In this document: positions 1,257 through 42,795 of the stretch, one piece after another
Position numbering within the stretch: position 1 is the first letter of the stretch
Layout: every line of letters begins with the position of its first letter
IMG/VR virus record: IMGVR_UViG_2534682025_000001
Coordinates: 1 to 64,000 of that record
From: a virus
Lineage: Duplodnaviria; Caudoviricetes
DNA: 64,000 bases
Reading direction: 5' to 3' (one strand)
Position numbers and translations under genes: made by a program
The notes under the pieces: generated by a model
Seen by the model: the letters and a program-made list of their open reading frames with translations, nothing else
The model's database searches: none
What the model was told of the DNA's origin: nothing

Positions 1257-2828
1257 ATGTCAGCTAATAATTTTAGGAAACACCTTGATCTCAATTTAAG
1301 GCAGTTAATACTTTTATTGGCTATTTTTAGTGTGTCTAGCCTTTTTATTATTTCTCTCATTATTAGCTATCAGATCGTAAAAAATCAGTTAATCGACAAT
1401 TCTCTTGCCTTAAACTCTGATCATGCACATAAAATTGCATTAAGCACAGACAACCATTTTAGAAATATGCTTCTTGAGCTGGACTATAGTGCCAAGATAT
1501 TAGGTCAAGACTTTAATAACAATGAGCTAAGAGAAGCCGAGGTCAATAAATTAAAATATCAGTCTGAACACTATAACAGTGTTGTGATCAGTGACACCCA
1601 AGGCAGACTGATAAACTTTTCCCCTAATATTCTGCATATTGATAAAAGCAAAATACAACATACTCAAGGGATTATTGACTCTCTTCATAAAAAATCGACT
1701 TATATATCTTCGCCCTATTTTTCTGTGCAAAAAAATATGATTGTGTTTATTTCTCAACCTATTTTTGACAAGTCAAATCACTATCAGGGCTTCATCGGTT
1801 CAGCGATTTATTTAAAAGAAAAAAATGTAATTAATCAGCTTCTAACCACTTATAAAAATTATAAGAATAGTTATATGTATGTGATTAACAATGAAAATAA
1901 AATTATTTTCCATCCCGATCGTGAAAGAATCGGTCAATTGGCCAGCAATAATACTGGTCTGGAATATATGCATGCGCATAAAAATGGTCAAATTCGTTTA
2001 ATCAATAGTCAAGGCGTTGATAATCTGGCAGGTTTTTCTCATATTCCGACTTCAAACTGGATCGTGGTTTCCCAACAACCCACCCATGACTTACTTAAAC
2101 AGGCAAATTCTATCCTCTATAAATTAGCCGCAGGATTCTTTTTATTTTATCTGCTTGTTTTTTATATTGTATGGCGACTGTCTGACTCTATCTCGGCCCC
2201 GTTGAACCAACTGGCAGATATGGCGAGTTTACTGAATCAGGCAGAAATCGGCTCAAAAATTAAGAATATCCAGCCCTGGTACTATGAGGTCACAAAATTC
2301 AAGTTAGCCCTACTGCTCAGTGTTCGCAAATTTTCGCAACAAATGAGCAAGATGGATCATCATATTAATACAGATCCTTTAACCGGCTTGATGAATCGTC
2401 GTGGTTTGAATTATGCCATGACTCAAAACATGAAGATGAACATCCCTTTTTCAGTACTTCTGATGGATGTGGATCATTTTAAAAACATTAATGACAATTA
2501 TGGTCATGATCAAGGTGATGTTGTCTTAAAGCATATTGCCAAGACGATGCAGCAAAAATTTCGTAAAGATGATATTTGCTGCCGCTACGGTGGTGAAGAA
2601 TTTATCATTATTATACCGAACAGCAATCTCACTGAAGTTTATGAAAGCGCAGAAAGGTTCAGAAAAGAAATTGCAGGTAAAGAGATTCAGGACATAGGTC
2701 ACATTAGCATTTCGATTGGTATTGCTTCTTGGCCAGACAGTTCTAAAAATATTCTAGACGTTTTGAAAACTGCCGATAACAATCTTTATCGGGCGAAAGA
2801 CGATGGACGCAACTGTGTGCGTTACTAA
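1257..2828 (+). CDS. Sensor (dCache) diguanylate cyclase, host gene
   Basis: Two TM segments flank a Cache-like domain; DPLTGLMNRR, DVDHFKNIND and RYGGEEF motifs of a GGDEF domain. Confidence 0.9.
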   Translation: MSANNFRKHLDLNLRQLILLLAIFSVSSLFIISLIISYQIVKNQLIDNSLALNSDHAHKIALSTDNHFRNMLLELDYSAKILGQDFNNNELREAEVNKLKYQSEHYNSVVISDTQGRLINFSPNILHIDKSKIQHTQGIIDSLHKKSTYISSPYFSVQKNMIVFISQPIFDKSNHYQGFIGSAIYLKEKNVINQLLTTYKNYKNSYMYVINNENKIIFHPDRERIGQLASNNTGLEYMHAHKNGQIRLINSQGVDNLAGFSHIPTSNWIVVSQQPTHDLLKQANSILYKLAAGFFLFYLLVFYIVWRLSDSISAPLNQLADMASLLNQAEIGSKIKNIQPWYYEVTKFKLALLLSVRKFSQQMSKMDHHINTDPLTGLMNRRGLNYAMTQNMKMNIPFSVLLMDVDHFKNINDNYGHDQGDVVLKHIAKTMQQKFRKDDICCRYGGEEFIIIIPNSNLTEVYESAERFRKEIAGKEIQDIGHISISIGIASWPDSSKNILDVLKTADNNLYRAKDDGRNCVRY

Positions 2829-6161: not shown

Positions 6162-9100
6162 TTATTTCCTCATTGTCATTGCGTGTATGTATCGCTGTGA
6201 AACACTAATATTTCCTCCAGTTACAGCAATTAATTGAAGCTGGAATGTGCCAGCAATGCCGGTTGAATCATGTCTTGAAATATTCATAGTTCCTGCACCT
6301 CTAGATTGGTTATCGATATTCACTGAGTGAGTATGTCCAGGATCGGCTGCAGATGTAAAACTAGAACTATTCACATTAAATGAGTGACTATGAGTTCCAG
6401 CAGAATTGGTTCCTGCTGAATCACTGAAGCTGTGACTATGAAAAGTACCGCCTGCATTTGTTGATCCTGTATTGCCGGAAACGCTCACGCTGTGAGAATG
6501 GCTACCTTCATTGCTTGTATTTCCTGAAAAAGAAACCGAGACCCCGTGTGAGTGCGATCCCGATAGTGATGTAGTTTTTCCAACAGTATTGGACTCTAGA
6601 TAAAACACTTCCAGATTCTCAAATACTACATTTCCATTTTTCAGCACACGACATAGGATTTGCTGTTTAGTATCAAAACTATTAAAGCTAAATACAGCCC
6701 CGAAAGTTAAAATCGTATGCCCCATGTCAGCAGGAACGTAGAGCGTTTGAATTGTGGTATATCCTGCCCCAACTTGGATTGCAGCCTCAGCAAATGCAGA
6801 TACAGGTACAGTTACTGCATTGTCCTTGATCTTCAATGTATCAACAGCAAGATTTGCAATCTTTGCAGTCTTAACCGCCAAATCTTCAATATGCGAAGTC
6901 TTGACAGACTGATAGTCCATCATTGCTGATCTCAAGTAAGCGGACACAGGAAACACTGTACCTGTCACCGGATCAGTGAATGGCGTATTGCGGAAAATGA
7001 ATGGGTAATAACCTGTGCTATTACCAGAACCAATGGCAAATGAATCAAAGTTCAAAATGAAATTAGATTCCTTGCCATCGTTAGCACCACCCCAACCTGC
7101 GACCTTTCCATTTACGTCGAGTTTGATGTACTTCTGTGCATACAGACCACTGACTGATTGTACGACCTCTTGAATTGATGCGGTATTTTGACCAACACTG
7201 GATTGAACTGTGTTAATGGTTTGACTTAGTGCATTGTCTGCATCAGCACGGGCAATCGCTTCAGCCTGAATAAGCGCTGTATTATCTCCAATCTGTGCAA
7301 CCGTCGTATCAATGCGCTGACTCAAAGCCATGTCGTTTTCAATCATTGCTGATTGCAAAGTCCATGTACCCGCAAAGCCTTCGGTTGAGCCAATCAGGTC
7401 TTCAGTTGAGCCAATTAACTTCGGATTGACTTGTGCATATACACCATCAATTTTGGTTGTATTGGCACTGATTTTTCCCTCATGCTCAGCCACTTTTGCA
7501 TCGGTTTGAGACAATGCGCCAGTACTGGCCTTATTTCCCAGCTCCAGAGTAATCGCATCAAGTCGTGTTGCGTTCGCGCCTGATTGTGTTGCAGCAACAT
7601 TCGCAGTAGATAAGGCAGTTGCAGCGGTTTGATTTGCTGTGTCTGCTGTATCGGCTGCCTGATTTGCAATTGCACTGGCCTGACTGGCTAGACTTGCTGC
7701 TGATCCAGCCTGAGTCGTTGCAGTCTCAGCCTTGTTTAATGCAGTGGCTGCATTGGTCTTTGCAGTATTTGCATTGCCTTCTGTCGTAGTTACACGACTA
7801 TCCAGCGCTTGCACTGCTTGCGTATTTGCAGATGTCGCGGTTACCGCTGTGTTTACCTGTTGCTGAACATTTGCAAGTGCCTGATCATTGCTGCTCTTGT
7901 AGTTATTCAAAGCGTTCAGGTTAGCAGTATCACCACTTTGACGATCTTCAATCTCCTGAGTTAGGCCATCATCCAGATCCTGCACTGCCGAGATGCGTTG
8001 CTGGGTCTCCTGATTCAATGCAGTATTCAGCTGATCTGCCTGAGTCTGTACTGCTGTGATATTATCGATTAAATTGCCGATATCACCATCAAGTCCTGCA
8101 ATCGTGTCGATCTTATCAATCTTGGTTTGCAAATCTTGGTGCAGTTGAAGCTCTGTAATTTTCCCCGACAAAATATCTAGCACTGCTGAAGCATCAGCAG
8201 ATGTTGTAGCACTAACACGTGCAGACCATGGCCCAACATTCCCGATCCGGTCAATCAGGCGACCGCGGAAATAGCGCGTTAAGTTTGGCTGCATACCTTG
8301 AATTACGTGTGTATCTGTTGGATAGGCAAACAAGCCCAGCTGCGCAGCATTGGCACCGTTGGCTGTGCTAGAAATCTCAATTTCCGTATACGCGGTATCA
8401 AGCGCACCAACTGCAGGAAAGTTCCAATTCAAACGATAGCCAAACAGAATGCCGGTAGCTGATAGATTTGCCAAAGCAGGCGGCAAGCCTTGTTTTCCAG
8501 TCAGTGCAGTCAGAATTGAATATGTTGGCAGTGAAGCAATATCAAAGGCTGAAATTGCTGTCACGCGCGCTTCGTAATTACCTGCATATATACCTGATAC
8601 TTCAGCTGAGTTGTTCCCAGTAATTGGTAACTTAATCCAAGTACCATCATCCTTGCGCCATTCCACCTGATACTTGGTGGCACCAATTGCCTGCGGCCAA
8701 GCGATAATCATGGTTTCAACAGATAGGCCTTGCTGCACCATAGTTTCAGAAGTAATTGATACTGACTCTACGGGTGCTTGAATTGTTGGATTGATGATGG
8801 AAATCGGACGCTCATCAATGAAAGCACCGAAATCGATTGCATCATATTTGGCTGATTCATATTGCAGACCTGTAATTGAAAACTGATGTTTGTCATCCTG
8901 AGTAATACTCATGACGCGAAACTTCATGGTTTTCAAATCCTGCGCATCAACTGCCCAGACATTTTCCGCAGCAACCGCATCAAATGCAGTGGTTACTATG
9001 ATATTACGACCATTTACGGACGATACGATTCGACCCTGTGCCTTTCCATCCTCACCATTCACCACCAGTCGATCACCTGCACGGCATACCACATCATCAC

Positions 9101-26629: not shown

Positions 26630-26989
26630 TTATTTTCCTTCTGTAGCTGTTTTCTCTCTATGACACGGCGCACACAACGACTGTAGATTGTCTGGATCAT
26701 CTGTACCACCATGAGCCTTAGCCTTGATGTGATCTACGTCTGTAGCCTCAGCCACACGCCCAGCAACGGCGCATTTCACACAGAGATAGTTATCACGCTT
26801 CATGATGCTTTCACGCAGTACTCGCCATGCATGACCATAGCCACGTGCCGTAGTTGATCCTGATCGGTCTTGGCGTGCTGTCCAGTTGCTGCGCTTATGT
26901 GCATGCTTATCACAATAGCCTTGTTCTTTTGGTGACTTGGTTAGGTTTGGGCAGCGAAACTCACGGCATGGTCTGCTCATATCCATCAA
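26630..26989 (-). CDS. HNH endonuclease (terminase-associated)
   Basis: CVKC...DHI...NLQSLCAPCHREKT. Confidence 0.9.
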   Translation of the reverse strand: MMDMSRPCREFRCPNLTKSPKEQGYCDKHAHKRSNWTARQDRSGSTTARGYGHAWRVLRESIMKRDNYLCVKCAVAGRVAEATDVDHIKAKAHGGTDDPDNLQSLCAPCHREKTATEGK

Positions 26990-27207
26990 TCCAAATAAGG
27001 CGACTTAGGTTTATCTTCATCATCTTCGGTCTGCATCATCGCTATCAGCTCATTGTTCTGATCCATGATACGAGCCATGACTTTATTTTGTTCTGCCAAT
27101 AGATTGCTTTGAGCTGTCGTCGCCTGGCTTTGGTTGCTCATTGCTTGAAGCATCTCGACCAGTAAGGCGTTCGATACACAGCCGCATTCTTTCTTTTGCT
27201 CGTTCAC
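26986..27207 (-). CDS. Hypothetical phage protein
   Basis: Coiled-coil ORF with acidic tail, coupled to the HNH start. Confidence 0.55.
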   Translation of the reverse strand: MNEQKKECGCVSNALLVEMLQAMSNQSQATTAQSNLLAEQNKVMARIMDQNNELIAMMQTEDDEDKPKSPYLD

Positions 27208-27265
27208 TTTGCTTCCTTATCCATTCACGGTTTCTTTCACACGATGCACATGTCATCTGAATCAC
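27083..27265 (-). CDS. Small CxxC protein (overlaps its neighbour)
   Basis: MTCASCERNREWI; same strand as the operon. Confidence 0.4.
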   Translation of the reverse strand: MIQMTCASCERNREWIRKQSERAKERMRLCIERLTGRDASSNEQPKPGDDSSKQSIGRTK

Positions 27266-27455
27266 CCAAGGTCACATTGATTTCGCTAAGCAGGTATTGA
27301 TTGACTTGATCTACAGTGGAGACATTCACAAATACCAACTCAACATCTTTGATTGCCAGGCCAGTCTCAGCCTCAAACAATCGCTTACGATCAGCTATGT
27401 CTTGGTATAAATCCCGCTTAAAGGTATCGAGTCGTTCTTGATCACTTGTACCCAC
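27237..27455 (-). CDS. Hypothetical protein
   Basis: ORF track; GTG start with GGAG RBS. Confidence 0.5.
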   Translation of the reverse strand: MGTSDQERLDTFKRDLYQDIADRKRLFEAETGLAIKDVELVFVNVSTVDQVNQYLLSEINVTLGDSDDMCIV

Positions 27456-27459
27456 GGCG

Positions 27460-27645
27460 CTATCTCCGACTTAAATTGATTTGAATGTTCTTCATGCGAG
27501 TACGGATGTTTGCCATTACCTCATCAATAGCCATCATCTGTTTGCTATTCATGAATGCTCGACTTAGGTTCTGGTACTTCACCAACTCATCGTGCAATTC
27601 ATTTAGATTCTTTTGCGCCTCTTTGACATCCATACGCACCACCAA
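27460..27645 (-). CDS. Hypothetical coiled-coil protein
   Basis: ORF track; probable start MDVKE. Confidence 0.5.
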   Translation of the reverse strand: MVVRMDVKEAQKNLNELHDELVKYQNLSRAFMNSKQMMAIDEVMANIRTRMKNIQINLSRR

Positions 27646-27855
27646 TAAGAAAAGAAAAACCCCTCAACATCTAGAATGCGAGGGGCTTTATTTGCCGTAA
27701 TACGTCCGGCGAATTTTAAGAATAAAAAAAGCCTGTTTAACTCTCTCTCCAATTAAACAGGCTTGACTTGCGCTACAACTTATTTCTTATTTGCAGGGCT
27801 ACCATATTGTTTAAGTATTTCAATCTAATGACATGGCTATTTGTTTGAGTGATTG

Positions 27856-27966
27856 TTATTCAACTTCTTTCAAACAATCCCGACACACTTTGATTTCTTC
27901 ATCAACCGTGTAATCGATTTCAGTCACACCGTGAAGGCCGAATAAACACATTAAGAATCGGAGCAT
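27856..27966 (-). CDS. 36-aa protein MLRFLMCLFGLH...CRDC (not in ORF track)
   Basis: GGAG RBS; C-x-FG-x-H...CxxC pattern seen in small prophage proteins. Confidence 0.55.
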   Translation of the reverse strand: MLRFLMCLFGLHGVTEIDYTVDEEIKVCRDCLKEVE

Positions 27967-28331
27967 TACTTTTCTCCAGACAAAAAAATACCTCCTTTAC
28001 AGGGAAAGGAGGCAGAAACTTAATAGAAACTACAGCCATAGAATCTGGCCCGCATTATATACATAATAATATTATATGCAAGGCTGTACCCTTAAATTGA
28101 ACCTTGCAATAAAAAGCCTGCTTAGCTGGAGGGCTAAACAGGCCGTGGAGTATTACATTATACTTGTTGTTGTAGCGTTCTAGGAATGAACACAAGATAC
28201 CAGTTGCTCACCACAAATAAGTATAAGAAATATATGCAGAATGTTTTAACGTGTAATAATTAAGTTATATTTATCAATAAATTGATCATCATTTAGTCAA
28301 AAATATCACTTAATAATCAATCTTGTTTATC

Positions 28332-28408
28332 TGGCACGCCATGTAGGACTCGAACCCACAACCATTGGTATAGAAAACCTATGCTCTTTCCAGTTGAGCT
28401 AATGGCGC
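28332..28408 (-). tRNA. Phage tRNA-Arg, anticodon TCT
   Basis: Cloverleaf: GCGCCAT acceptor, GCTC/GAGC D-arm, loop TTTCTAT, GTGGG-TTCGAGT-CCTAC T-arm, encoded CCA. Confidence 0.9.
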
Positions 28409-28410
28409 AT

Positions 28411-28649
28411 AAAAAAGGATATGACGATCTGCCACACCCTTGCCTTAGATTACGATACTGACCAGCTCGGCAACTGATCTACCGCTACTCACAATCCCAC
28501 ACACCTAACATGCACGGTCCGCTTTACTTGCTTTCAATCCTCTTTAGGTCGGGACGCTACTCCCTAGTCTAAATTCCCGAAGGAAGTTTACTCGATGGCA
28601 TGTTCCACTGCTCGGCACTCCAGAAGGCTTGGGTCGCCTTTTCACAGGC
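28411..28649 (-). ncRNA. Candidate about 240-nt multi-helix structured RNA upstream of the tRNA
   Basis: Several nested helices found by hand, a cUUCGg tetraloop, repeated UGCCGAGC and GAGUAGCG motifs, 3' terminator; no ORF in the track. Confidence 0.6.
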
Positions 28650-28652
28650 ATT

Positions 28653-28679
28653 AAAAAAGCCCACCATTTGGCGAGCTTT
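28653..28679 (-). terminator. tR'-like terminator after the late promoter
   Basis: AAAGCTCGCC-aaat-GGTGGGCTTTTTT on minus. Confidence 0.75.
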
Positions 28680-28714
28680 CAAATCAATCTAGTGCTTTAA
28701 CGTACACTTCGATC

Positions 28715-28754
28715 ACTATAACATAAATATACACATATATGGCGCACCAAGCAA
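28715..28754 (-). promoter_or_regulatory. pR'-like late promoter with -10-like pause element
   Basis: TTGCTT-17 bp-TATATT followed by TATAGT near +1, downstream of the Q gene. Confidence 0.65.
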
Positions 28755-28838
28755 ATATTATTTTGAAAGCTTGTTCTTTAATTTAAAATCATATAAAACA
28801 ATGTATTAACTACTTTAGAATAAGCTTATGAATGAAAG

Positions 28839-31067
28839 ATGATTAATTGTCTACATATTAAAAAAATCGCGACTTATAATTCTATTGGTGTAGAAATAAA
28901 TGACCTAAATAAAGTCAACTTTATCTATGGTGGTAACGGTTGTGGGAAAACAACTATTTCAAATTTTTTATTTCATCATACCCATCCTGATGAATCTGCT
29001 AGCAATTATTCTTCATGTAACATTGCATTTAAAAGCCTAGAAAAGATCAAAATTTTAACTTATAACAAAAAGTTCAGGGATCTAAATTTCTATAAAGATT
29101 CTGAAATACCGGGTGTTTTCACGTTAGGTGAGGCTTCAATTGAGGAAATACAGGCAATAAATAGCAAAACAGAAGAGTTAAATCTAGCAAATAAAGAATT
29201 AAACAAGACTCAAACTCAAATTACTAACTTTACTGAATTATCAAATAAACAAGAAAAAGAATCGATAGAAAAATGCTGGGACGTATTCAAACAATATGAA
29301 GATGATTTCAGACCAGCTCTTCTAGGTTCTGGATTTTTGGGCTCTAAGGCTAACTTCAGAAAAAAAATTTTAAATACATTACCTTTGGGCGGGAGAATCA
29401 TCAAACCACATTCTTCTCTTGTTGATCGCACCAAAACACTTTTTTCAACAAAATTAGAAACACTCGATGAAATTCACCTTAATGAATCAAATCCCCTAGA
29501 ACTTTATGAATCATCAGATATTTGGAAAACAATTATCATTGGTAAAAAAGACTTAGATATAGCTAAATTAATTAATAATTTAAATATTACAGATTGGGTA
29601 AACCAAGGACGTTCATACATAAATGATTCAACTTGCCCTTTTTGCCAAAAAGAAACTATTGATGATGTTTTTAAAAGCAGACTTGAGGAGTATTTTGATA
29701 ATGAATTCGAAAACAAGGTAAAAAATCTAAAAGCTTTGCAAGAAAAATATGAAATTGCTTGTACTAATTTGATTAAAGAATTAGAAAACGTCTTAGCCAA
29801 AGAAATAAGTAGAAACAGTAAGCTCAATATAAAAGAGTTTGAAATCGAATTAGAAAGTCTTAAAAACCTACTAAGATTAAATATTCAATTATCACGGGAA
29901 AAGCTAACCAGTATAAGTAGCATAATAGAATTAAGCTCATCTAATGATATTTTTAATGAAATTACTTCACTTATTAACAGTGCAAATATCGAGATTAAAA
30001 ATCACAACGATTTAGTTAATTCACATGTTCAAGAAACCACTAAGTTGACTTCAGAAATTTGGGATTTTTTAACATTCGAAGCTAATCACCGTATTTCATC
30101 ACATGAAACTCAAATAGAAAATCATTGTAAGGCCCTCAACGGAATGAAGGCATCTGAAGAGAAAGGAAAAGAAAAAATTCAGCGCTTAAGCAATGAGCTT
30201 TCCCAATTAAATTCAACTTCAACAAGTGTACAGCCTGCAGTAGATGAGATTAACCTCTTATTAAAAGGATTTGGTTTTACTAATTTCAAAATTGATAAAG
30301 CTGAAAAGCCTAATCATTACTGGATCAAACGTGATAATGGTGACAATGCCTTGCACTCACTAAGTGAGGGTGAATCTACATTTATTACTTTTTTGTATTA
30401 TCTACAGGTAGTTAAAGGCTTATCAACTAAAGATGAGGCAATCACAAGCAAAATCTTAGTTATCGATGATCCAATTTCAAGCTTAGATAGCAATGTATTA
30501 TTTATAGTAAGCACATTAATTAAAAATCTTATAAAAGGTACAATATCTAGAGATAGCACACTGGGTATTAAACAAATTATCATCCTTACTCATAACGTAT
30601 ATTTTCATAAGGAGATCTCATTCCAACTCCAAAAAGATGATTCAAATCATGTTAATTACTGGATATTAAGAAAAAAAGAAAACACGACATTCATTACAAA
30701 TCATGGTAAAAACAATCCTATTTCCTCAACATATCAAATGCTTTGGAATGATGTAAAAGAAGCAGACAAAAGTAGCTCAACATCAATTCAAAATATCATT
30801 AGAAGAATTCTAGAAAATTATTTCAAAATTCTAGGAAATTACAGCGACACACAAATTATTGATGAATTTAATACATATGAAGAAAAGAAAATTTGCCAAT
30901 CATTACTGCATTGGATAAATGATGGATCTCATTGCATTCCTGATGATTTATTTATTCAACCCATAGATTCAGAAAAAGATATTTATTTAGATGTTTTCAG
31001 AAAAATATTTGAGAAATCTGGACATGAGGCTCACTACAATATGATGATGGGTATAACTAATCATTGA
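28839..31067 (+). CDS. RloC-like Rad50/ABC ATPase with C-terminal HEPN-type nuclease (AAA_13 family)
   Basis: Walker A GGNGCGKT, coiled coil with CPFC zinc hook, LSEGE signature, VIDDPISSLD, LTHN, C-terminal RRILE...NDGSH; very AT-rich. Confidence 0.8.
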   Translation: MINCLHIKKIATYNSIGVEINDLNKVNFIYGGNGCGKTTISNFLFHHTHPDESASNYSSCNIAFKSLEKIKILTYNKKFRDLNFYKDSEIPGVFTLGEASIEEIQAINSKTEELNLANKELNKTQTQITNFTELSNKQEKESIEKCWDVFKQYEDDFRPALLGSGFLGSKANFRKKILNTLPLGGRIIKPHSSLVDRTKTLFSTKLETLDEIHLNESNPLELYESSDIWKTIIIGKKDLDIAKLINNLNITDWVNQGRSYINDSTCPFCQKETIDDVFKSRLEEYFDNEFENKVKNLKALQEKYEIACTNLIKELENVLAKEISRNSKLNIKEFEIELESLKNLLRLNIQLSREKLTSISSIIELSSSNDIFNEITSLINSANIEIKNHNDLVNSHVQETTKLTSEIWDFLTFEANHRISSHETQIENHCKALNGMKASEEKGKEKIQRLSNELSQLNSTSTSVQPAVDEINLLLKGFGFTNFKIDKAEKPNHYWIKRDNGDNALHSLSEGESTFITFLYYLQVVKGLSTKDEAITSKILVIDDPISSLDSNVLFIVSTLIKNLIKGTISRDSTLGIKQIIILTHNVYFHKEISFQLQKDDSNHVNYWILRKKENTTFITNHGKNNPISSTYQMLWNDVKEADKSSSTSIQNIIRRILENYFKILGNYSDTQIIDEFNTYEEKKICQSLLHWINDGSHCIPDDLFIQPIDSEKDIYLDVFRKIFEKSGHEAHYNMMMGITNH

Positions 31068-31117
31068 TGATTAGTTATTTCATTTTGAAAATAAAACTCT
31101 ATTTATTTAATAGAGTT

Positions 31118-31513
31118 TTATTGGTTACATATAAACTCTAATCTACAATCCAACCAGGTTTCCCCAGCAAGTAAATATTTATCGATTATGCGCCTGTCAA
31201 CTTTACTTAATTTTTCCAAAGCTCGGATTGACAACCCCTTCAAATAATGAAACTCAATCCACTGGTACAGATCTGGCCGTGAAAAGCGCAACTGCGTCAC
31301 CAGGTGATCAATAGCAACCAAAGCATCATCATCCAGCATCACCTGAATACCTGACGACTTCTGCCCCTCTTTCAAACGCATCAAACCATATGTAGGTGAG
31401 GTATAAGTCAATTCACTTGGATTATATGAAGCATGACGCGCCCACTTACCCCACTGCGCCAATTCATTCTGCATCATTCGAACCGTTGGTTTTACTTCTA
31501 CAATTGCGCTCAT
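31118..31513 (-). CDS. Late antiterminator Q
   Basis: LAQWGKWAR, DDDAL..ID and C-terminal HTH; last gene of the early right operon. Confidence 0.8.
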   Translation of the reverse strand: MSAIVEVKPTVRMMQNELAQWGKWARHASYNPSELTYTSPTYGLMRLKEGQKSSGIQVMLDDDALVAIDHLVTQLRFSRPDLYQWIEFHYLKGLSIRALEKLSKVDRRIIDKYLLAGETWLDCRLEFICNQ

Positions 31514-31526
31514 TTATATTCTTCCC

Positions 31527-31958
31527 TTAAACCTTCCAAAATCTTTTAAAAACCAACATTGCTGCATCACGTGCATGCTCATTCGTGCGGCCAGTCCAAC
31601 CGGTGATCTTCTTAAATAGATCCGCTTTGGTTTTAGTAGCATTTGCCTTTGGGTGAACCATGATGTAATTGAACTCCTGCTCCTTACACCAGTCCTCCCA
31701 GATCTGTGCATCACGCTTTACTGACCCAACGCCTTGAGCTTTTTCTTTACCACCAGTAAACCAAGTGCGTTTACGTGCATCTTCGATATACAGCTTTAAA
31801 TTATCTTTCCCATGAATCGCTTTTATTTCCTGAACCGCCTGCATTGCCTTGGTGATGCTTAAGCACTCCACCTGGTGCAACTCCCCACCGGAGCCATGGT
31901 CGATTGCCACGGCGTAACCGGTTTTAACTCCTGTATCGATGCCGATGAGGATTTTCAA
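31527..31958 (-). CDS. RNase H-fold (RuvC-like) resolvase candidate
   Basis: IGIDTG...YIED...NEHARDA acidic motif pattern. Confidence 0.55.
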   Translation of the reverse strand: MKILIGIDTGVKTGYAVAIDHGSGGELHQVECLSITKAMQAVQEIKAIHGKDNLKLYIEDARKRTWFTGGKEKAQGVGSVKRDAQIWEDWCKEQEFNYIMVHPKANATKTKADLFKKITGWTGRTNEHARDAAMLVFKRFWKV

Positions 31959-32125
31959 ATCACAAACTCCTTATCATCTTTGCACCAGCACACATATGCG
32001 ATTTGTACTGTTAAGTTGCGGTACCCAATACCTTGGTCAAAATCAAACAAGCGGCCCCCATAGATATATTTCAGTTGCAGGTAGAAGGACTGAGCCATGA
32101 AGAAATTTTCGAATTGGTCTTTCAT
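31955..32125 (-). CDS. 56-aa hypothetical protein (not in ORF track)
   Basis: MKDQFENFF...; start and stop overlap both neighbours. Confidence 0.6.
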   Translation of the reverse strand: MKDQFENFFMAQSFYLQLKYIYGGRLFDFDQGIGYRNLTVQIAYVCWCKDDKEFVI

Positions 32126-32961
32126 GCTGCACCACCAAATAAATCAGGTTGAGCAGCCGCTGGATTCATCCATAAACATTCAATTCGGGTATCAGTGCCG
32201 CGGCCAGATGAAATACGCGCTTTAATTTCTACCTTTTGCCAGCCTTTGAGCATTTCTTCATACAAATCGGATTGGTAACCGGAAAGCATGACCATTCCGT
32301 CTAGCTCGAGTAATGTGTTGAGTAAATCCAGGTGATCTTTATCATCCATCTCATGACGGTAAACTCGACCAGTTTTGGCACCTTCATAACGGGTATCGTG
32401 AACATACGGCGGATCCACATAATGCAAAGTGGTAGGCGCGTCATGATCTTTAAGAATCTGGATTGCTGGACGGTTCTCAATTAAAACTCCACTCAATCTC
32501 TGGCCAATCTGACTTAGATGTTCTGGATAAGTGGTCCACAATGACTGAGCTGTTCCGTACTGGCGCTTTGTATCAATACGAAAACCTGTAATACCTTTGG
32601 TTGCACCGGCAGATCCAAAGCCCATCTGAGCACGGATGATCGTACGGCGTGCACGTTCTACTGAATCCTCAGAACCCAACCAAGAATTTTCAAATTCTTC
32701 ACGGCTGTAAGGCGTTAGAATTAATTGTTCAATTAGCTTTTCTCTCGAGCTAGAACTTCGAAGTACCTTAAAAAGATTTACGATGTCACCATCAAGGTCG
32801 TTATAGACCTCAGCGTACGCTCGTGGCTTTTGTAGAAGAACTCCAGCTGCTCCACCAAATACTTCTGTGTAGCAAGTGTGATTTGGCATTTGAGAAATAA
32901 TCCAATGAGCAATTCGGAATTTACCACCGTGGTACCGGATTAAAGGATGATTCATTTTCAA
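32122..32961 (-). CDS. DNA adenine methyltransferase (Dam/D12 class)
   Basis: RYHGGK, EVFGG, YNDLD and DPPY motifs. Confidence 0.92.
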   Translation of the reverse strand: MKMNHPLIRYHGGKFRIAHWIISQMPNHTCYTEVFGGAAGVLLQKPRAYAEVYNDLDGDIVNLFKVLRSSSSREKLIEQLILTPYSREEFENSWLGSEDSVERARRTIIRAQMGFGSAGATKGITGFRIDTKRQYGTAQSLWTTYPEHLSQIGQRLSGVLIENRPAIQILKDHDAPTTLHYVDPPYVHDTRYEGAKTGRVYRHEMDDKDHLDLLNTLLELDGMVMLSGYQSDLYEEMLKGWQKVEIKARISSGRGTDTRIECLWMNPAAAQPDLFGGAA

Positions 32962-33563
32962 GCTGCTCTCCCCGGACGCTTAAAAGCACCCTTCACTTTT
33001 GCAGCCAACTCAGGCGGACACGGCACACCTTTACGATTGCGCTCGTCATAAGTTAAAGACTTAGCCTTACCCTCTTTCTTCCACATTTCCTGCACGCGGC
33101 CTTTTTCCTTCGCCCGGGCAAGGTAGTCCTGATAAATCGCATTAAAGGCGTAATGCGCTGCTTTCTGCCCCTCTACGTTGAGGATATGGCGCACCTCATC
33201 AAGACTGCGCTTCGCAAGTGTCGTAATTTCTGATTTTTTATCGTTTTCAAACTGCAGTGCTTTGGCCCATGCCATATCTGCAGTCCACCAGTCACCACCT
33301 TGTTCACACCAGCTGCGGAATTTCGGAAGGTTTGGACACCACTCTTCAGAATTCATACGCAAGATGCCGCGAGTGATATCAGCTGGAGTTAGGCCACTCA
33401 AAACAGTGCATGCCAACTGAACAAGCTCTTCATCTGAATAACCTGCGTATTTTTTAGTGAACTCAGCGCCGTAGACGTCACCAATACGGTTTAAAACCAT
33501 TTCTGCCACTTCAACTGGAAAGTTCACAGCAAAAGCGTTTTCGAATAATTGAATATTGCTCAT
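32958..33563 (-). CDS. Replication protein, lambda P-like position
   Basis: WCPNLPKFRSWC motif; follows the initiator gene. Confidence 0.6.
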   Translation of the reverse strand: MSNIQLFENAFAVNFPVEVAEMVLNRIGDVYGAEFTKKYAGYSDEELVQLACTVLSGLTPADITRGILRMNSEEWCPNLPKFRSWCEQGGDWWTADMAWAKALQFENDKKSEITTLAKRSLDEVRHILNVEGQKAAHYAFNAIYQDYLARAKEKGRVQEMWKKEGKAKSLTYDERNRKGVPCPPELAAKVKGAFKRPGRAA

Positions 33564-34339
33564 TAGTTTGACTCTCCCACTGTGCGCATTTGATTTGGAT
33601 CTACCTGGTTGCCAAAGCGACGGCGCTGCATTGGCTGTTGGTTTTGAGCTGGTGTTTGTTGTTTAGGGGGATAAACACTCTGATAACTTCCGATGATTGA
33701 AGCTTCCAGCGATTGATTTGCCTGATCACCAAAGCCAACCAATTTTTTAATCAAAAGGTTTACGGCGTTTTCAGTGAGTGGCTTTCTGATGCTGTTGCGC
33801 ATATCAACAAATTGAATCCACAAATCACGATTTACGTTTGCTGGTAACTCAACTGGTTTTGCATCGAATGCAGTTGGTTTTTTAGAAGAAGATTTCTCTT
33901 TTTCACCCTTATCTTTATTTGTTTTTGTATTAGTTGTTTTTGAGTTGTTATTGTGGGTCGAATCTTTAGAGTGCACGCTATCTAAAATATCGACTCCCCC
34001 CTCTATATTTTCGACGGCGTTTTTTTCGCTATCTAAAATATCGACTGCAAAAATACTGTCAGTTAGAACATACTTTGCCGGCTGATTTGAGAAAGATTTA
34101 CGCTCAATAACACCCATTTGAACTAATTTTTCACAACCTTTTAGGACTGAGTCTTTGTTGTATCCAGTACCCGCCACCAGTTGAGAAACACTGATGCTAT
34201 CGTCAGATTTATTCCAGCCACGAGTTTTACGCACAATGAATAGATAACAAGGCAAAGCTGGGCCTTTCATATGAGCCATATAACCTTTGTCAATTAGGTC
34301 ATTAGGCAGCATGAAGGCGTTAGAAATAAAACTGCTCAT
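33563..34339 (-). CDS. Replication initiator (lambda O-like)
   Basis: IVRKTRGWNK..D.IS.SQ winged-helix N-terminus; internal iterons. Confidence 0.85.
   Translation of the reverse strand: MSSFISNAFMLPNDLIDKGYMAHMKGPALPCYLFIVRKTRGWNKSDDSISVSQLVAGTGYNKDSVLKGCEKLVQMGVIERKSFSNQPAKYVLTDSIFAVDILDSEKNAVENIEGGVDILDSVHSKDSTHNNNSKTTNTKTNKDKGEKEKSSSKKPTAFDAKPVELPANVNRDLWIQFVDMRNSIRKPLTENAVNLLIKKLVGFGDQANQSLEASIIGSYQSVYPPKQQTPAQNQQPMQRRRFGNQVDPNQMRTVGESN
33955..34046. repeat. Origin iterons within the initiator gene
   Basis: CGCTATCTAAAATATCGACT at 33976-33995 and 34027-34046, a degenerate copy between them and an inverted one to the left, next to an AT-rich tract. Confidence 0.75.
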
Positions 34340-35889: not shown

Positions 35890-36010
35890 TCTCAACATCA
35901 CGTTAAGTATATGGTAAACACAGCGTTAAGTATTGTCAATTTTTTCTGTTTAACACAAGTTGTTTACTTTTTTAGATAATAAAAGGGCTTTTACACACCG
36001 GGTTAACACG
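35890..36010. promoter_or_regulatory. OR region with pR
   Basis: Minus-strand TTGACA (35934-35939)-17 bp-TACCAT (35911-35916); imperfect palindromes such as TAACACAAGTTGTTTA. Confidence 0.65.
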
Positions 36011-36013
36011 AGC

Positions 36014-36694
36014 ATGCATCCTTCATTAGAAAGAATTTTAAAAATAAGTGGCTTGAATCAAGAAGAGCTAGCTAAGAAAATTGATGAATCTCCACAAACT
36101 GTTAGCAACTGGAAGAGACGTGGAGTATCTAAGTCAGGTGCGATTAAGGCGTCTGCTCAATTTGGTGTGTCGGTCAACTGGATCTTGCAAGGTGATGAGA
36201 AGGGTCAAAATGTTGAAGTTACAAAAGTTCAAGGATGGGATCATCAAACCCCACTAGATGATGATGAGGTTGAAATACCATTTTATAAGGAATTCTTAGT
36301 GTCTTGTGGCTCTGGTACAGCTGCAGAAATTATTGGTGAAGCAACAAGGAAGTTGCGCCTAAGTAAGGCAACACTCAATAAATACGGCGTTTATGAAGGA
36401 AATGCTTATGCTCTAACAGCATTCGGGAACTCTATGGCACCAGTAATTAATAACGGCGCTACTGTGTATGTAGATACCGGCAGAACACAGATTATTGATG
36501 GAAAGATTTATGCCATAAATCATGGTGGATTATTCAAATTCAAGTATTTATATCGCATGCCTAAAGGTGGGGTGCGAATTGTTAGCGCCAATTCTGAAGA
36601 GTATCCAGAAGAGGTACTGACTATCGAAGATATTATGGAGCAGGAATTTTGCGTAGTAGCTTACGCATTCAATGTACAAAACCCTCTGCCGTAA
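36014..36694 (+). CDS. CI repressor, HTH + S24 peptidase
   Basis: HTH (QEELA...TVSNWK), SCGSG cleavage-site region, GNSM and FK catalytic residues; likely start MHPS. Confidence 0.9.
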   Translation: MHPSLERILKISGLNQEELAKKIDESPQTVSNWKRRGVSKSGAIKASAQFGVSVNWILQGDEKGQNVEVTKVQGWDHQTPLDDDEVEIPFYKEFLVSCGSGTAAEIIGEATRKLRLSKATLNKYGVYEGNAYALTAFGNSMAPVINNGATVYVDTGRTQIIDGKIYAINHGGLFKFKYLYRMPKGGVRIVSANSEEYPEEVLTIEDIMEQEFCVVAYAFNVQNPLP

Positions 36695-40044: not shown

Positions 40045-40220
40045 TGGTTCTTACAATTTCGCAAACCTGTAAATTATTAAATATCGGACGCACTACGGTT
40101 TACAGAATGTTTGAGCGAGAGGAATTAGAAAAAATTGAAATAGGAAAATCAGTCCGGGTTAAGCTCCCGGACCATCTGGCCAAAGCATACGAAGATCAAA
40201 TTAAAGCCCTTATGCATTAA
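40044..40220 (+). CDS. Excisionase (HTH_17-like), not in ORF track
   Basis: AGGAGG RBS; MVLTISQTCKLLNIGRTTVYRM...IEIGKSVRV. Confidence 0.8.
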   Translation: MVLTISQTCKLLNIGRTTVYRMFEREELEKIEIGKSVRVKLPDHLAKAYEDQIKALMH

Positions 40221-41448
40221 GGGCTTTTAGTTTTAATGAGTCCAGATAATCAGACCACGCCTGCATCATCACCTGTCTTTCTTCTAAATACTTAGTACGG
40301 TTATATGCCCGACCATGCATATCCCTCACCTGGTGGCCCAGCTGCTGCTCAATACGTTCAATCGGAAATTTTAAAACTTCATCTAATAAGGTACGTGCTG
40401 TTGCACGGAAGCCGTGGCCTGTGGTTTCGCCATTTTCCCAGCCTAAATTTTTAAGTGCCTTATTTATTGAGCTATCAGACAACAATCTGGTTTTACCCCA
40501 GTAATTGGCAAAGCAGTATTCAGATCCACCGGTAATCATATGCAACTCTTTAAACATTGCAGTGACCTGATCAGAAAGCGGTATCACCAATTGAGTACCT
40601 AAAGCATTTGCGGTTTTGGACGGCGTGTAGGCCCAAGTCTTTTCATCAAAATTTATATCGGCCCACATTGCATGACGCAACTCACCAGGACGAACAAACA
40701 CATGAGGTAAAATTCTAAGAGCATAAGCCATTACGATTGAGCCGCGATTTGTATAGTTATCAATTGCCACCAGTAATTCACCAAGCAAACTAGGATCGGT
40801 GACGGCAGCATGATGTGTTTTTTTATGGGGCTTTAATAGCCCTTGAATATCCAGTGCCACATTTCGATCACAAAGACCAAGCACTAAACCGTATTTAAAC
40901 ACTTGCCCTGCTTTTGATCGCATACGTCTTGCTGTTTCAGACTTACCTTGTTTTTCATAAATCTGGCAAACGTCGAGCAACTGGCGGGCTGATATTTCAT
41001 GAATTGGCTTTTTACCAATAGCATCAAACAAATACTGATAAATAAATTCGTTTCTATGTCTTGTTGATTCAGCAACAACTTCAGTTTGCATAAATTCGCG
41101 TGCCACAGCTTCGAATGTGTTTCGCATGGCAAAGCGGGCTTGTTCTTCCTGTTCTTTTCGATGGGCAAACGGATCTATATCTTGAGCAAGTAGCTCTTTA
41201 TATTCTTCACGGAACTTTCTGGCATCGGCCAAAGATAAATTTGGATATACACCTATACCAATTGTCGTTCTTTTTTTTGTAATAGGTCGAAAATAATCAA
41301 AACGCCAATATGTGCCGCCTTTTTTATCTAAAAGCAGAAATAAACCACCACCATCAGCCAGTTTTATTATCTTTTCTGGTGACTTTTTTTGCTTAGATAT
41401 TGCAGATTTAATTTTTGCGTCTGTGAGACTTACAACTGTTCTAGCCAT
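40210..41448 (-). CDS. Tyrosine integrase, P4/IntA-type with arm-binding domain
   Basis: DGGGLFL, GVYP.LSLADAR, RPGELR, HGFR, QLGH and RAYNR motifs. Confidence 0.95.
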   Translation of the reverse strand: MARTVVSLTDAKIKSAISKQKKSPEKIIKLADGGGLFLLLDKKGGTYWRFDYFRPITKKRTTIGIGVYPNLSLADARKFREEYKELLAQDIDPFAHRKEQEEQARFAMRNTFEAVAREFMQTEVVAESTRHRNEFIYQYLFDAIGKKPIHEISARQLLDVCQIYEKQGKSETARRMRSKAGQVFKYGLVLGLCDRNVALDIQGLLKPHKKTHHAAVTDPSLLGELLVAIDNYTNRGSIVMAYALRILPHVFVRPGELRHAMWADINFDEKTWAYTPSKTANALGTQLVIPLSDQVTAMFKELHMITGGSEYCFANYWGKTRLLSDSSINKALKNLGWENGETTGHGFRATARTLLDEVLKFPIERIEQQLGHQVRDMHGRAYNRTKYLEERQVMMQAWSDYLDSLKLKALNA

Positions 41449-41808: not shown

Positions 41809-42795
41809 ATGGCCACCTTTAGACAAAGGGGTGATGCTTGGCGAGTTGAGATTAGTGTGAATGGTACTCGGGAAAGTGCAACATTCGATACTAAGACTCA
41901 GGCTCGCGCATGGGCATCAAAACGTGAAACTGAATTAAGAGAGTTATCACGCGGAAAGCTTCCTGATTATACATTAAATTGTGCAATTGATAGATACATA
42001 GAAGAAGTGTGCCCAAAGCACAAAGGTTGTGATGCAGAGATTAAAAGATTCCGAGCATTTCAAAGGAACTTCCCAAAGATTGCCAAAAAACATATTGCCA
42101 AAATTACCACCGATGATTTTGTGGTGTGGCGAGATACCAGACTAAAAACAGTCAAGCCGGCCTCGGTACGACGTGAGGGTAATATCCTGTCTGCCCTATT
42201 CACTGTTGCACGCACAGAATGGAAGTGGGTCTATGATTCACCCATGAGTGACTTAAAGATGCCACCACCACCAGCACATCGAGATAGACGTATATCGGAG
42301 GATGAAATTTACAGGCTTTGTCTTGCTGCTGAATTTGATGATCAGGCGCCTGAGAATTTCACACAGCAAATTATGATTGCTTTCCTGTTGGCGATTGAAA
42401 CTGCAATGCGTGCCGGTGAGATCCGTGGCCTGACTTGGGATCGAGTTTATTTAAAGAATAGATATGTGACTTTGAATGAAACCAAAAATGGTACGAAGCG
42501 ACATGTGCCCTTATCAAAGCGTGCTGTTGAATTGCTTGAGCTTATGAAAGGTGTCGGCAGTCATCAGGTTTTTACGGTGAAAGATTCGAGCTTTGATACA
42601 CTTTGGAGGAAGTTGCGAGATAAGTGTGAAATTGAAGATTTGCATTTTCACGACTCAAGACATGAAGCATGCACACGGCTTGCTCAGAAATTGGAAGTAT
42701 TAGATTTGGCGCGGATGATCGGGCATAAGGATTTAAGAAGCCTGATGATTTATTACAATGCAACTGCATCAGAGATTGCAAATAGGTTGGATTAA
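41809..42795 (+). CDS. Tyrosine integrase (short, Rci/HP1-like)
   Basis: ETAMRAGEI, TKNG, FHDSRHEA and IGH...YYN motifs. Confidence 0.92.
   Translation: MATFRQRGDAWRVEISVNGTRESATFDTKTQARAWASKRETELRELSRGKLPDYTLNCAIDRYIEEVCPKHKGCDAEIKRFRAFQRNFPKIAKKHIAKITTDDFVVWRDTRLKTVKPASVRREGNILSALFTVARTEWKWVYDSPMSDLKMPPPPAHRDRRISEDEIYRLCLAAEFDDQAPENFTQQIMIAFLLAIETAMRAGEIRGLTWDRVYLKNRYVTLNETKNGTKRHVPLSKRAVELLELMKGVGSHQVFTVKDSSFDTLWRKLRDKCEIEDLHFHDSRHEACTRLAQKLEVLDLARMIGHKDLRSLMIYYNATASEIANRLD

Follow-up and report, generated by a model that had tools for sequence, protein, structure and literature searches.

The window analysed here is a stretch of 64,000 nt that forms part of an 84,614-base provirus record of IMG/VR (IMGVR_UViG_2534682025_000001), and our subject is a gene within it whose product resembles the anticodon nuclease RloC (the rloC-like gene; Table 1). 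The minus strand of the surrounding prophage shows a lambdoid layout with a cro-like gene, a cII-like gene, an O-like replication gene, a D12 methyltransferase, a resolvase and the late antiterminator gene Q. Past Q come the rloC-like gene, the leader RNAs, small open reading frames (ORFs), an HNH gene, the genes of the small and large terminase subunits (TerS and TerL) and the head and tail genes. The D12 methyltransferase close to the rloC-like gene is an orphan, and the resolvase is of the Holliday-junction type. The rloC-like ORF points towards Q and away from the late leader. This arrangement agrees with an earlier description made from the letters alone (hereafter the sequence-only reading), which had placed an AT-rich 742-aa gene antisense between Q and the late promoter, and a structured RNA together with a tRNA-Arg(UCU) on the divergent leader transcript. 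The ORF has a GC content of 29.6%, and both the RNA, which matches the Rfam family RF03046 (Pseudomonadales-1), and the tRNA lie on the minus strand. Judging from gene order and profile matches, the carrier is a lambdoid prophage controlled by an S24-type repressor. Its host is very probably Acinetobacter, because the nearest named relatives of the terminase (~73-82% identity) are Acinetobacter species. A megablast search of positions 27500-31600 against deposited phages and complete E. coli genomes returned no match.

Profile searches identify the protein as a member of the RloC family. The Pfam family AAA_13 matches residues 10-725 with an E-value of 1.7e-157 (526.7 bits, cut-off 36), and the alignment spans positions 2-713 of the 713-position profile. 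PADLOC, which the sequence-only reading had proposed to run, returned an end-to-end match to PDC-S06, a candidate single-gene system (E 1.6e-242), and a second match to its PrrC model over residues 471-726 (E 1.1e-12). An NCBIfam scan of the 742-aa protein yielded no specific family. At E <= 1e-5 we found 1305 homologues, the top three of which are 87, 80 and 67% identical and unnamed, while all others follow from ~44% down. Several homologues at 41-44% identity bear the name 'wobble nucleotide-excising tRNase' at JGI and 'AAA family ATPase' at NCBI.

Conservation of the functional motifs was judged in an alignment of 32 homologues with identities of 41-87%, and every motif named in the following is invariant among them. 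The head of the ATP-binding cassette (ABC) type is represented by Walker A (G31..G36-K37-T38-T39), the signature S509-E-G-E512, Walker B (D543-D544), the D-loop S548-L-D550 and H585, the histidine of the H-loop or linchpin. The Q-loop could not be placed in the 742-aa translation, and the claim that all ABC motifs are present was therefore slightly overstated, whereas it stands for the five elements listed. Walker A and the signature are separated by ~470 residues that hold long helices and the motif C266-P-F-C269, in agreement with the CxxC zinc hook that had been predicted. The C-terminal part contains the triad R655-x3-E659-x38-S697-H698, as the sequence-only reading had noticed, and R656 is likewise invariant. 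The published RloC motif reads Arg-X3-Glu-X36-52-His with a Ser frequently preceding the His, and mutation of each of the triad residues kills the nuclease activity of Geobacillus kaustophilus RloC, according to the accessible part of PMC2610378. With a spacing of x38 and a serine at position 697, the triad therefore falls within this definition.

An AlphaFold2 model computed from the 32-sequence alignment has a mean predicted local distance difference test score (pLDDT) of 79.4 and shows long helices at residues 101-161, 288-323, 331-357 and 369-460. The CPFC motif sits in a non-helical stretch between paired long helices of the model. A Foldseek search against the PDB gave Rad50 of the Mre11-Rad50-Nbs1 complex as best match (7zr1_C, E 1.5e-7), with SMC heads, Lamassu LmuB and the retron-associated PtuA among the further matches; by sequence, no solved relative turned up in the PDB (best E 0.22). 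As modelled, the fold is of the Rad50/SMC type. Profiles, motifs and fold together support the assignment of the gene to the RloC family as a predicted anticodon nuclease carrying all sequence-level features of RloC.

Several observations suggest that the gene is foreign to the phage that carries it. The late and early genes have GC contents of 44.3% and 43.4%, respectively, far above that of the rloC-like ORF. AGA accounts for 11 of its 18 arginine codons (61%), compared to 32 of 281 in the late genes, which corresponds to 14.8 versus 4.8 AGA per 1000 codons. This AGA-rich usage is in line with the rare codons predicting low expression that are described, in the accessible text of PMC2610378, as a general trait of RloC genes. 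Among bacteria sampled with one genome per species, the best homologues reach at most 45% identity and come from Bacteroidota, Gammaproteobacteria, Campylobacterota and Firmicutes. IMG/VR contains 21 loci with RloC relatives, of which the sole close one (L005) is the same phage recovered from a metagenome.

The clearest evidence comes from a related phage (L145) that is ~94% identical on both sides of the gene and in which 293 nt correspond to 2554 nt of the window. The blastn breakpoints pair positions 26634-28679 of the window with L145 930-2978, and positions 31234-33931 with L145 3272-5972. L145 retains Q (88% identical protein) as well as both elements of the leader, the RNA and the tRNA-Arg(UCU). 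Because a 94%-identical relative has an empty site, the gene arrived as a self-contained unit. In another relative (L115), the same slot between Q and the late promoter is occupied by a different antisense ORF of 227 aa (L115 5828-6511, plus strand), which has no Pfam or PADLOC match and which we regard as a candidate moron or defence gene. On the side of Q, the rloC-like gene is followed by a perfect 14-bp hairpin with flanking runs of A and T, which is likely a bidirectional terminator between the two convergent genes. Around the insert, we found no direct or inverted repeats of the kind expected at the ends of a transposon. Taken together, we consider it probable, at roughly 80%, that the rloC-like gene is a horizontally acquired moron in a junction between phage operons. 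The sequence-only reading had named an independent defence moron as its fallback, and it is this fallback that gains from the GC content of 29.6% against ~44%, the empty site of L145, the gene's own terminator and the lack of co-occurrence described below.

In a survey of public sequencing runs, from which four possible-source rows were set aside, 10 runs belonging to 9 studies contain 73-95% of the sampled words, and in one of them (X6) a single contig spans positions 28694-31568 with 7 differences. This allele of the rloC-like gene is thus no one-off product of assembly. A run made from an RNA library (X17) holds three short contigs in the gene (28892-29128, 29463-29609 and 30962-31119); as neither DNA-free status nor strand nor level is inferable for them, we draw no claim of expression from these contigs.

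The position of the gene next to the tRNA had led the sequence-only reading to propose a pair of toxin and self-rescue element, and to suggest co-occurrence across related prophages as a check. We therefore surveyed IMG/VR with an exact DNA pattern built from two conserved stretches of the RNA, which gave 64 loci (L106-L169); all 20 of the 20 loci checked score above the Rfam gathering threshold (98-129 bits). A tblastn search with the nuclease detected a homologue in one of the 64 RNA-bearing loci, and this locus (L126) lies on the same contig as L005. In 14 loci, the RNA is followed by a tRNA-Arg(UCU), in 3 by a tRNA-Trp alone, in 7 by Trp together with Met(CAT), and in one each by Trp together with Ile(TAT), by Met alone and by a degenerate tRNA; 37 have no tRNA in this slot. 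The tRNA side is covered by 350 nt of flank or more in 59 loci, of which 34 are without tRNA. The nuclease is present in 1/14 tRNA-Arg(UCU) loci, all of which extend for 500 nt or more towards Q, so that the start of the gene would be included.

The converse search gave the same result. Among 101 loci with RloC homologues (21 viral and 80 genomic), any tRNA lies within the fetched flanks in 4, and a tRNA-Arg(UCU) was found in L005 only, i.e., in the same phage. Moreover, the second prophage of the record has the leader with a tRNA-Trp and no nuclease, which contradicts the expected co-occurrence in a sister prophage. In sequencing run X15, one contig joins position 28082 to 28483 via 45 other letters, so that it is tRNA-less, and runs on through the leader and the 5'-terminal 790 nt of the gene at ~99% identity; as a single assembled contig, which moreover diverges near its end, it lends weak support. 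In sum, no nuclease accompanies the RNA in 63 of 64 loci or the tRNA-Arg(UCU) in 13 of 14, and 100 of 101 RloC loci are without tRNA-Arg. The proposed pairing is therefore not supported, since frequent occurrence of the cassette without the nuclease is an outcome that the sequence-only reading itself had named as refuting it. The RNA and the tRNA are a backbone feature of the late leader in this phage group, and the nuclease is a rare passenger. Comparison of the loci supports the view that the cassette predates the arrival of the gene and would not be a dedicated antidote or decoy; an incidental functional interplay of tRNA-Arg(UCU) and nuclease may exist.

The tRNA slot itself appears to be exchangeable. 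Outside the anticodon arm, the tRNA-Arg(UCU) and the tRNA-Trp(CCA) of the second prophage (L004 9181-9255, minus strand) are identical at 56 of 60 positions, and inside the arm at 9 of 17, which looks like swapping of anticodon arms on a constant phage tRNA body. One of the differences outside the arm is an A at a position of the D-loop that we take to be A20, required by arginyl-tRNA synthetase. In the phage tRNA-Arg, the anticodon stem is rich in A and U and contains a 28:42 mismatch, and positions 32 and 38 are both U (U32/U38), whereas the versions in L155 and L158 look canonical with C32/A38. The copy beside the rloC-like gene stands apart through a single substitution in this stem, a unique A instead of the G at position 28 of its closest relatives. 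Its best match among deposited phages is the tRNA-Arg of Gifsy-1 (75% over 107 nt). Enterobacterial lambdoid prophages likewise have tRNA genes past Q and the late promoter, so that the position of the tRNA-Arg is shared with them. In Shiga toxin (Stx) phages, the tRNAs ileZ-argN-argO lie between Q and stx; to our knowledge, the leaders of Stx phages carry no Pseudomonadales-1 RNA.

How might the gene act in the lysogen? RloC is described as excising the wobble nucleotide, with a nuclease that is switched on by linear DNA and ATP hydrolysis (PMC3874168 and the accessible part of PMC2610378). By analogy, the rloC-like gene would be transcribed from a promoter of its own, antisense to the phage operons. 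The bidirectional terminator would insulate it from Q, so that low-level, constitutive production in the lysogen would be possible. Linear DNA ends, e.g. of an infecting phage, would then act through the ATPase/zinc-hook switch to activate the C-terminal nuclease, which would cut or excise the wobble position in a few tRNA species. The resulting arrest of translation would abort the superinfecting phage and thereby protect the lysogen population. The carrier prophage, with its S24 repressor and HNH/terminase packaging, generates DNA ends itself, and its own induction might trip the nuclease as well.

A comparison with known systems shows what is shared and what is not. With the RloC proteins of G. 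kaustophilus and A. baylyi ADP1 (COG4694, AAA_13), the protein shares the ABC head split by a coiled coil, the CxxC hook and the C-terminal triad, and with their genes the stand-alone position without linkage to restriction-modification (R-M) and the rare-codon features of low expression. It differs in being cargo of an inducible lambdoid prophage, located between Q and the late promoter, and its nearest named homologues are at most 45% identical. PrrC, the tRNA-Lys nuclease linked to EcoprrI, has the ABC motifs and the nuclease triad in common with it, and the PADLOC match to PrrC over residues 471-726 reflects this likeness. In contrast to the protein described here, PrrC lacks the coiled-coil/zinc-hook insert and always resides in a type I R-M locus, as stated in the accessible parts of PMC3458546 and PMC2610378. 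No hsd genes were found in the annotated prophage segments, where the neighbours are Q, the resolvase, the D12 methyltransferase and the leader RNAs.

HepS of the prophage Gifsy-1 is likewise a prophage-encoded anticodon nuclease, which defends the lysogen without blocking the spread of its own phage. However, it is a single-domain HEPN tetramer triggered by a siphovirus tail-tip protein, and in the account given in the accessible sections of PMC13043305 self-sparing relies on a non-triggering variant of the tail tip and on no tRNA. Phage tRNAs that offset tRNA-targeting defence resemble the present locus in that a tRNA with a deviant anticodon arm lies beside a tRNA-targeting system. Such tRNAs counter a defence of the host in the accessible parts of PMC10264068 and PMC11555353, whereas nuclease and tRNA sit in one phage here and are unlinked when loci are compared. 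A text search of the literature showed that RloC is mentioned in defence surveys and in prophage contexts. The RloC family, prophage-borne defence morons and prophage-encoded anticodon nucleases are thus already described, and what is new is this member and this carrier.

Several points weigh against the reading of the gene as an RloC-type defence moron. The pLDDT of the model falls below 50 at residues 693-701, i.e., around the catalytic Ser-His pair, and activity, trigger, tRNA targets and defence phenotype would all be transferred to the gene by homology. The likeness to G. kaustophilus and A. baylyi RloC was judged via the published motif and description, in place of a direct alignment. 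PDC-S06 has the status of a 'candidate' in PADLOC and is merely listed in the accessible portion of PMC11514479. The survey with the exact RNA pattern covers one viral collection, in which redundant phages are possible and from which diverged copies may escape. According to the literature, some interplay with tRNA-Arg(UCU), a secondary substrate of over-expressed G. kaustophilus RloC, is also conceivable. The points on the protein could also be accommodated by an AAA_13/Rad50-like ATPase whose C-terminus is no tRNase, i.e., a DNA-directed or other effector, or by a decaying passenger. This would fit a nuclease function predicted from sequence, homologues that NCBI names 'AAA family ATPase' only, a family filed by PADLOC as candidate, and a region of low model confidence in a protein without solved sequence relative. 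We nevertheless judge it quite improbable, given that the frame is intact and of full length, the catalytic and ATPase residues are invariant in 32 homologues down to 41% identity, and the match to the PrrC profile extends through the nuclease domain. Furthermore, the spacing of the triad fits that of the mutationally validated RloC motif, as published in the accessible part of PMC2610378.

The remaining alternatives concern the tRNA. In the pairing proposed earlier, a break-activated nuclease would poison the phage's own lytic cycle, and the late tRNA-Arg(UCU) as a replacement, or the RNA as a decoy, would offset the damage. The literature lends this idea some plausibility. Over-expressed G. 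kaustophilus RloC mainly cuts tRNA-Glu and to a lesser extent tRNA-Lys, tRNA-Arg4(UCU) and tRNA-Gln1 of E. coli, and tRNA-Arg(UCU) is a major substrate of over-expressed PrrC (accessible part of PMC2610378). Cleavage of tRNA-Arg by A. baylyi RloC is considered possible in view of a weak signal (PMC3874168), and phage tRNAs do evade tRNA-targeting defences according to the accessible parts of PMC10264068 and PMC11555353. The unusual anticodon arm of the phage tRNA (28:42 mismatch, U32/U38), its unique A28 beside the gene, and a cI of the S24 type, by which DNA damage would plausibly set off both induction and nuclease, point in the same direction. Against this stand the locus counts given above, the Trp, Met and Ile anticodons or the absence of any tRNA on the same scaffold in sister phages, and the tRNA-less leader joined to the 5' part of the gene in X15. 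The natural substrates of A. baylyi RloC, the one RloC studied in an Acinetobacter host, are tRNA-Glu and tRNA-Gln, and only a minor fraction of the target is cleaved after nalidixic acid (PMC3874168), so that 'self-poisoning' may need no remedy. The worked precedent of HepS spares its own phage via the tail-tip variant and, in the accessible sections of PMC13043305, without a tRNA. We thus regard a dedicated self-rescue pair as very unlikely. Still less credible, in our view, is that the tRNA-Arg(UCU) matters only as decoder of AGA codons in the AT-rich gene. The AGA excess of the gene over the late genes would suit it, but the tRNA lies on the opposite strand in a Q-dependent late leader, behind terminator-like hairpins, whereas a defence gene would be needed in the lysogen. 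The cassette is older than the insertion, as L145 indicates, and rare codons accompanying low expression are a general RloC trait in the accessible text of PMC2610378. A broader variant takes the late-leader unit, i.e., the RNA with its swappable tRNA (Arg-UCU, Trp-CCA, Met or Ile partners), as a modular counter-defence against tRNA-targeting immunity, with the tRNA-Arg sustaining late translation under the phage's own RloC. We hold this to be unlikely; if true, the nuclease would have landed in a leader that pre-adapted the phage to carry it.

Read as a horizontally acquired moron, the locus is a clear case of an RloC-family predicted anticodon nuclease as prophage cargo in a lambdoid phage of the Acinetobacter type. 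The phage described here, L145 with its empty site and L115 with another gene in the slot form a ready-made set for asking what a prophage RloC defends against, and the same trio bears on how an inducible prophage tolerates a DNA-break-activated tRNase. The adjacency of nuclease and tRNA is no evidence of a toxin/antidote pair. Perhaps of more lasting interest than the nuclease is an RNA that is filed as a small RNA (sRNA) in Rfam and turns out to be a late-leader element with a swappable tRNA.

Table 1 Features of the window around the rloC-like gene and in the remainder of the prophage.
Feature	Position	Strand	Evidence or remark
rloC-like gene, 742 aa	28839-31067	+	ORF list, translation
Q-type late antiterminator gene	31118-31513	-	phrog_79, E 1.7e-22; Pfam Phage_antitermQ, 52.9 bits (cut-off 26)
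Perfect 14-bp hairpin with A-run and T-run flanks (likely bidirectional terminator)	31090-31122	.	fold -17.4 kcal/mol, z -3.86; overlaps the Q stop codon
Segment without counterpart in L145	28680-31233	.	upstream half of the putative late promoter, rloC-like gene, terminator, 3' end of Q
Guessed own promoter of the rloC-like gene (TTGAAA, 18 nt, AATCAT)	28763-28792	+	consensus-level guess only
Putative late promoter (TTGCTT, 17 nt, TATATT)	28726-28754	-	by eye; 8/12 consensus positions
Hairpin with T-run, just upstream of the RNA	28653-28676	-	by eye; identical in both prophages; absent from the scan list
Pseudomonadales-1 RNA (Rfam RF03046)	28460-28627	-	112.7 bits, gathering 68
Terminator-like hairpin between RNA and tRNA	28415-28441	-	terminator scan
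tRNA-Arg(UCU), encoded CCA	28332-28408	-	tRNA gene call; Rfam tRNA, 55.7 bits
Further terminator-like hairpins in the ~1-kb leader	28144-28115, 28050-28034, 28014-27989, 27764-27729	-	before the first late ORF
cI (HTH and Peptidase_S24)	35960-36694	+	profile match
Integrase	40210-41448	-	at the prophage junction
Second integrase	41809-42795	+	back to back with the integrase at 40210-41448
Second prophage, tail genes	from ~42.9 kb (42912 onward)		tandem arrangement

On the minus strand, 5 terminator-like sites were found compared to 1.4 expected from shuffles. The putative late promoter is missing from the consensus scan because its match lies below the threshold of that scan. A second RF03046 copy with 119.6 bits is located at positions 73306-73473 of the record (L004 9306-9473, minus strand), so that each of the two prophages has one. 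In the leader of the second prophage, the tRNA-Trp(CCA) follows the RNA, and a 182-aa ORF stands directly before it in the slot of Q; this protein is non-homologous to Q and without Pfam match. The two leaders of the record show few differences from the hairpin through the tRNA and are ~97% identical from the hairpin through the RNA.

Across the surveyed loci, the Pseudomonadales-1 RNA typically follows, at a distance of 100-350 nt, a small gene that occupies the Q slot; these Q-slot genes belong to several unrelated families. Terminator-like hairpins flank the RNA. The Pseudomonadales-1 RNA is thus a phage late-leader element. Of 35 loci whose flank extends to 3.5 kb or more, 7 contain homologues of TerL, TerS or HNH of this phage; owing to the mosaic gene content downstream, a uniform layout of RNA followed by terminase could not be shown. 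Pfam and PADLOC searches of ORFs between Q and the RNA in five loci (L115, L120, L132, L138 and L167) matched no defence families and gave a weak T5orf172 hit in L120 and SmpB, a host gene, in L132. A blastn search of positions 28300-28700 against deposited phages matched the tRNA part only, with no match for the RNA part. RF03046 was not detected in 151 genomes of the order of L027, where control genomes were equally silent, and a literature text search for 'Pseudomonadales-1' returned no paper.

Some loci of the survey deviate in ways of their own. ARAGORN assigns a two-base 'anticodon' to the tRNA of L122, whose anticodon arm is one base shorter than that of the tRNA-Arg(UCU) of L167 and differs from it in one further base; judging from this, it is probably a decayed copy. 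In contigs of the sequencing runs X15 and X16, ~400 nt of the leader (28083-28482, including the tRNA-Arg) are replaced by 41-45 other letters, with X16 providing fragments only. In L168, the place that the tRNA has in other phages, ~450 nt past the Pseudomonadales-1 RNA, is taken by an Rfam abiF RNA motif (2542-2578, plus strand; 54.5 bits, gathering 37); no long abiF-like ORF is present within the fetched DNA. Finally, the RNA and a cassette of tRNA-Trp and tRNA-Met in L132 lie ~840 nt from the host gene smpB (8355-8828, plus strand; Pfam SmpB, E 9e-57), and because smpB is so near, this leader would sit at the end of a prophage or in a prophage remnant.

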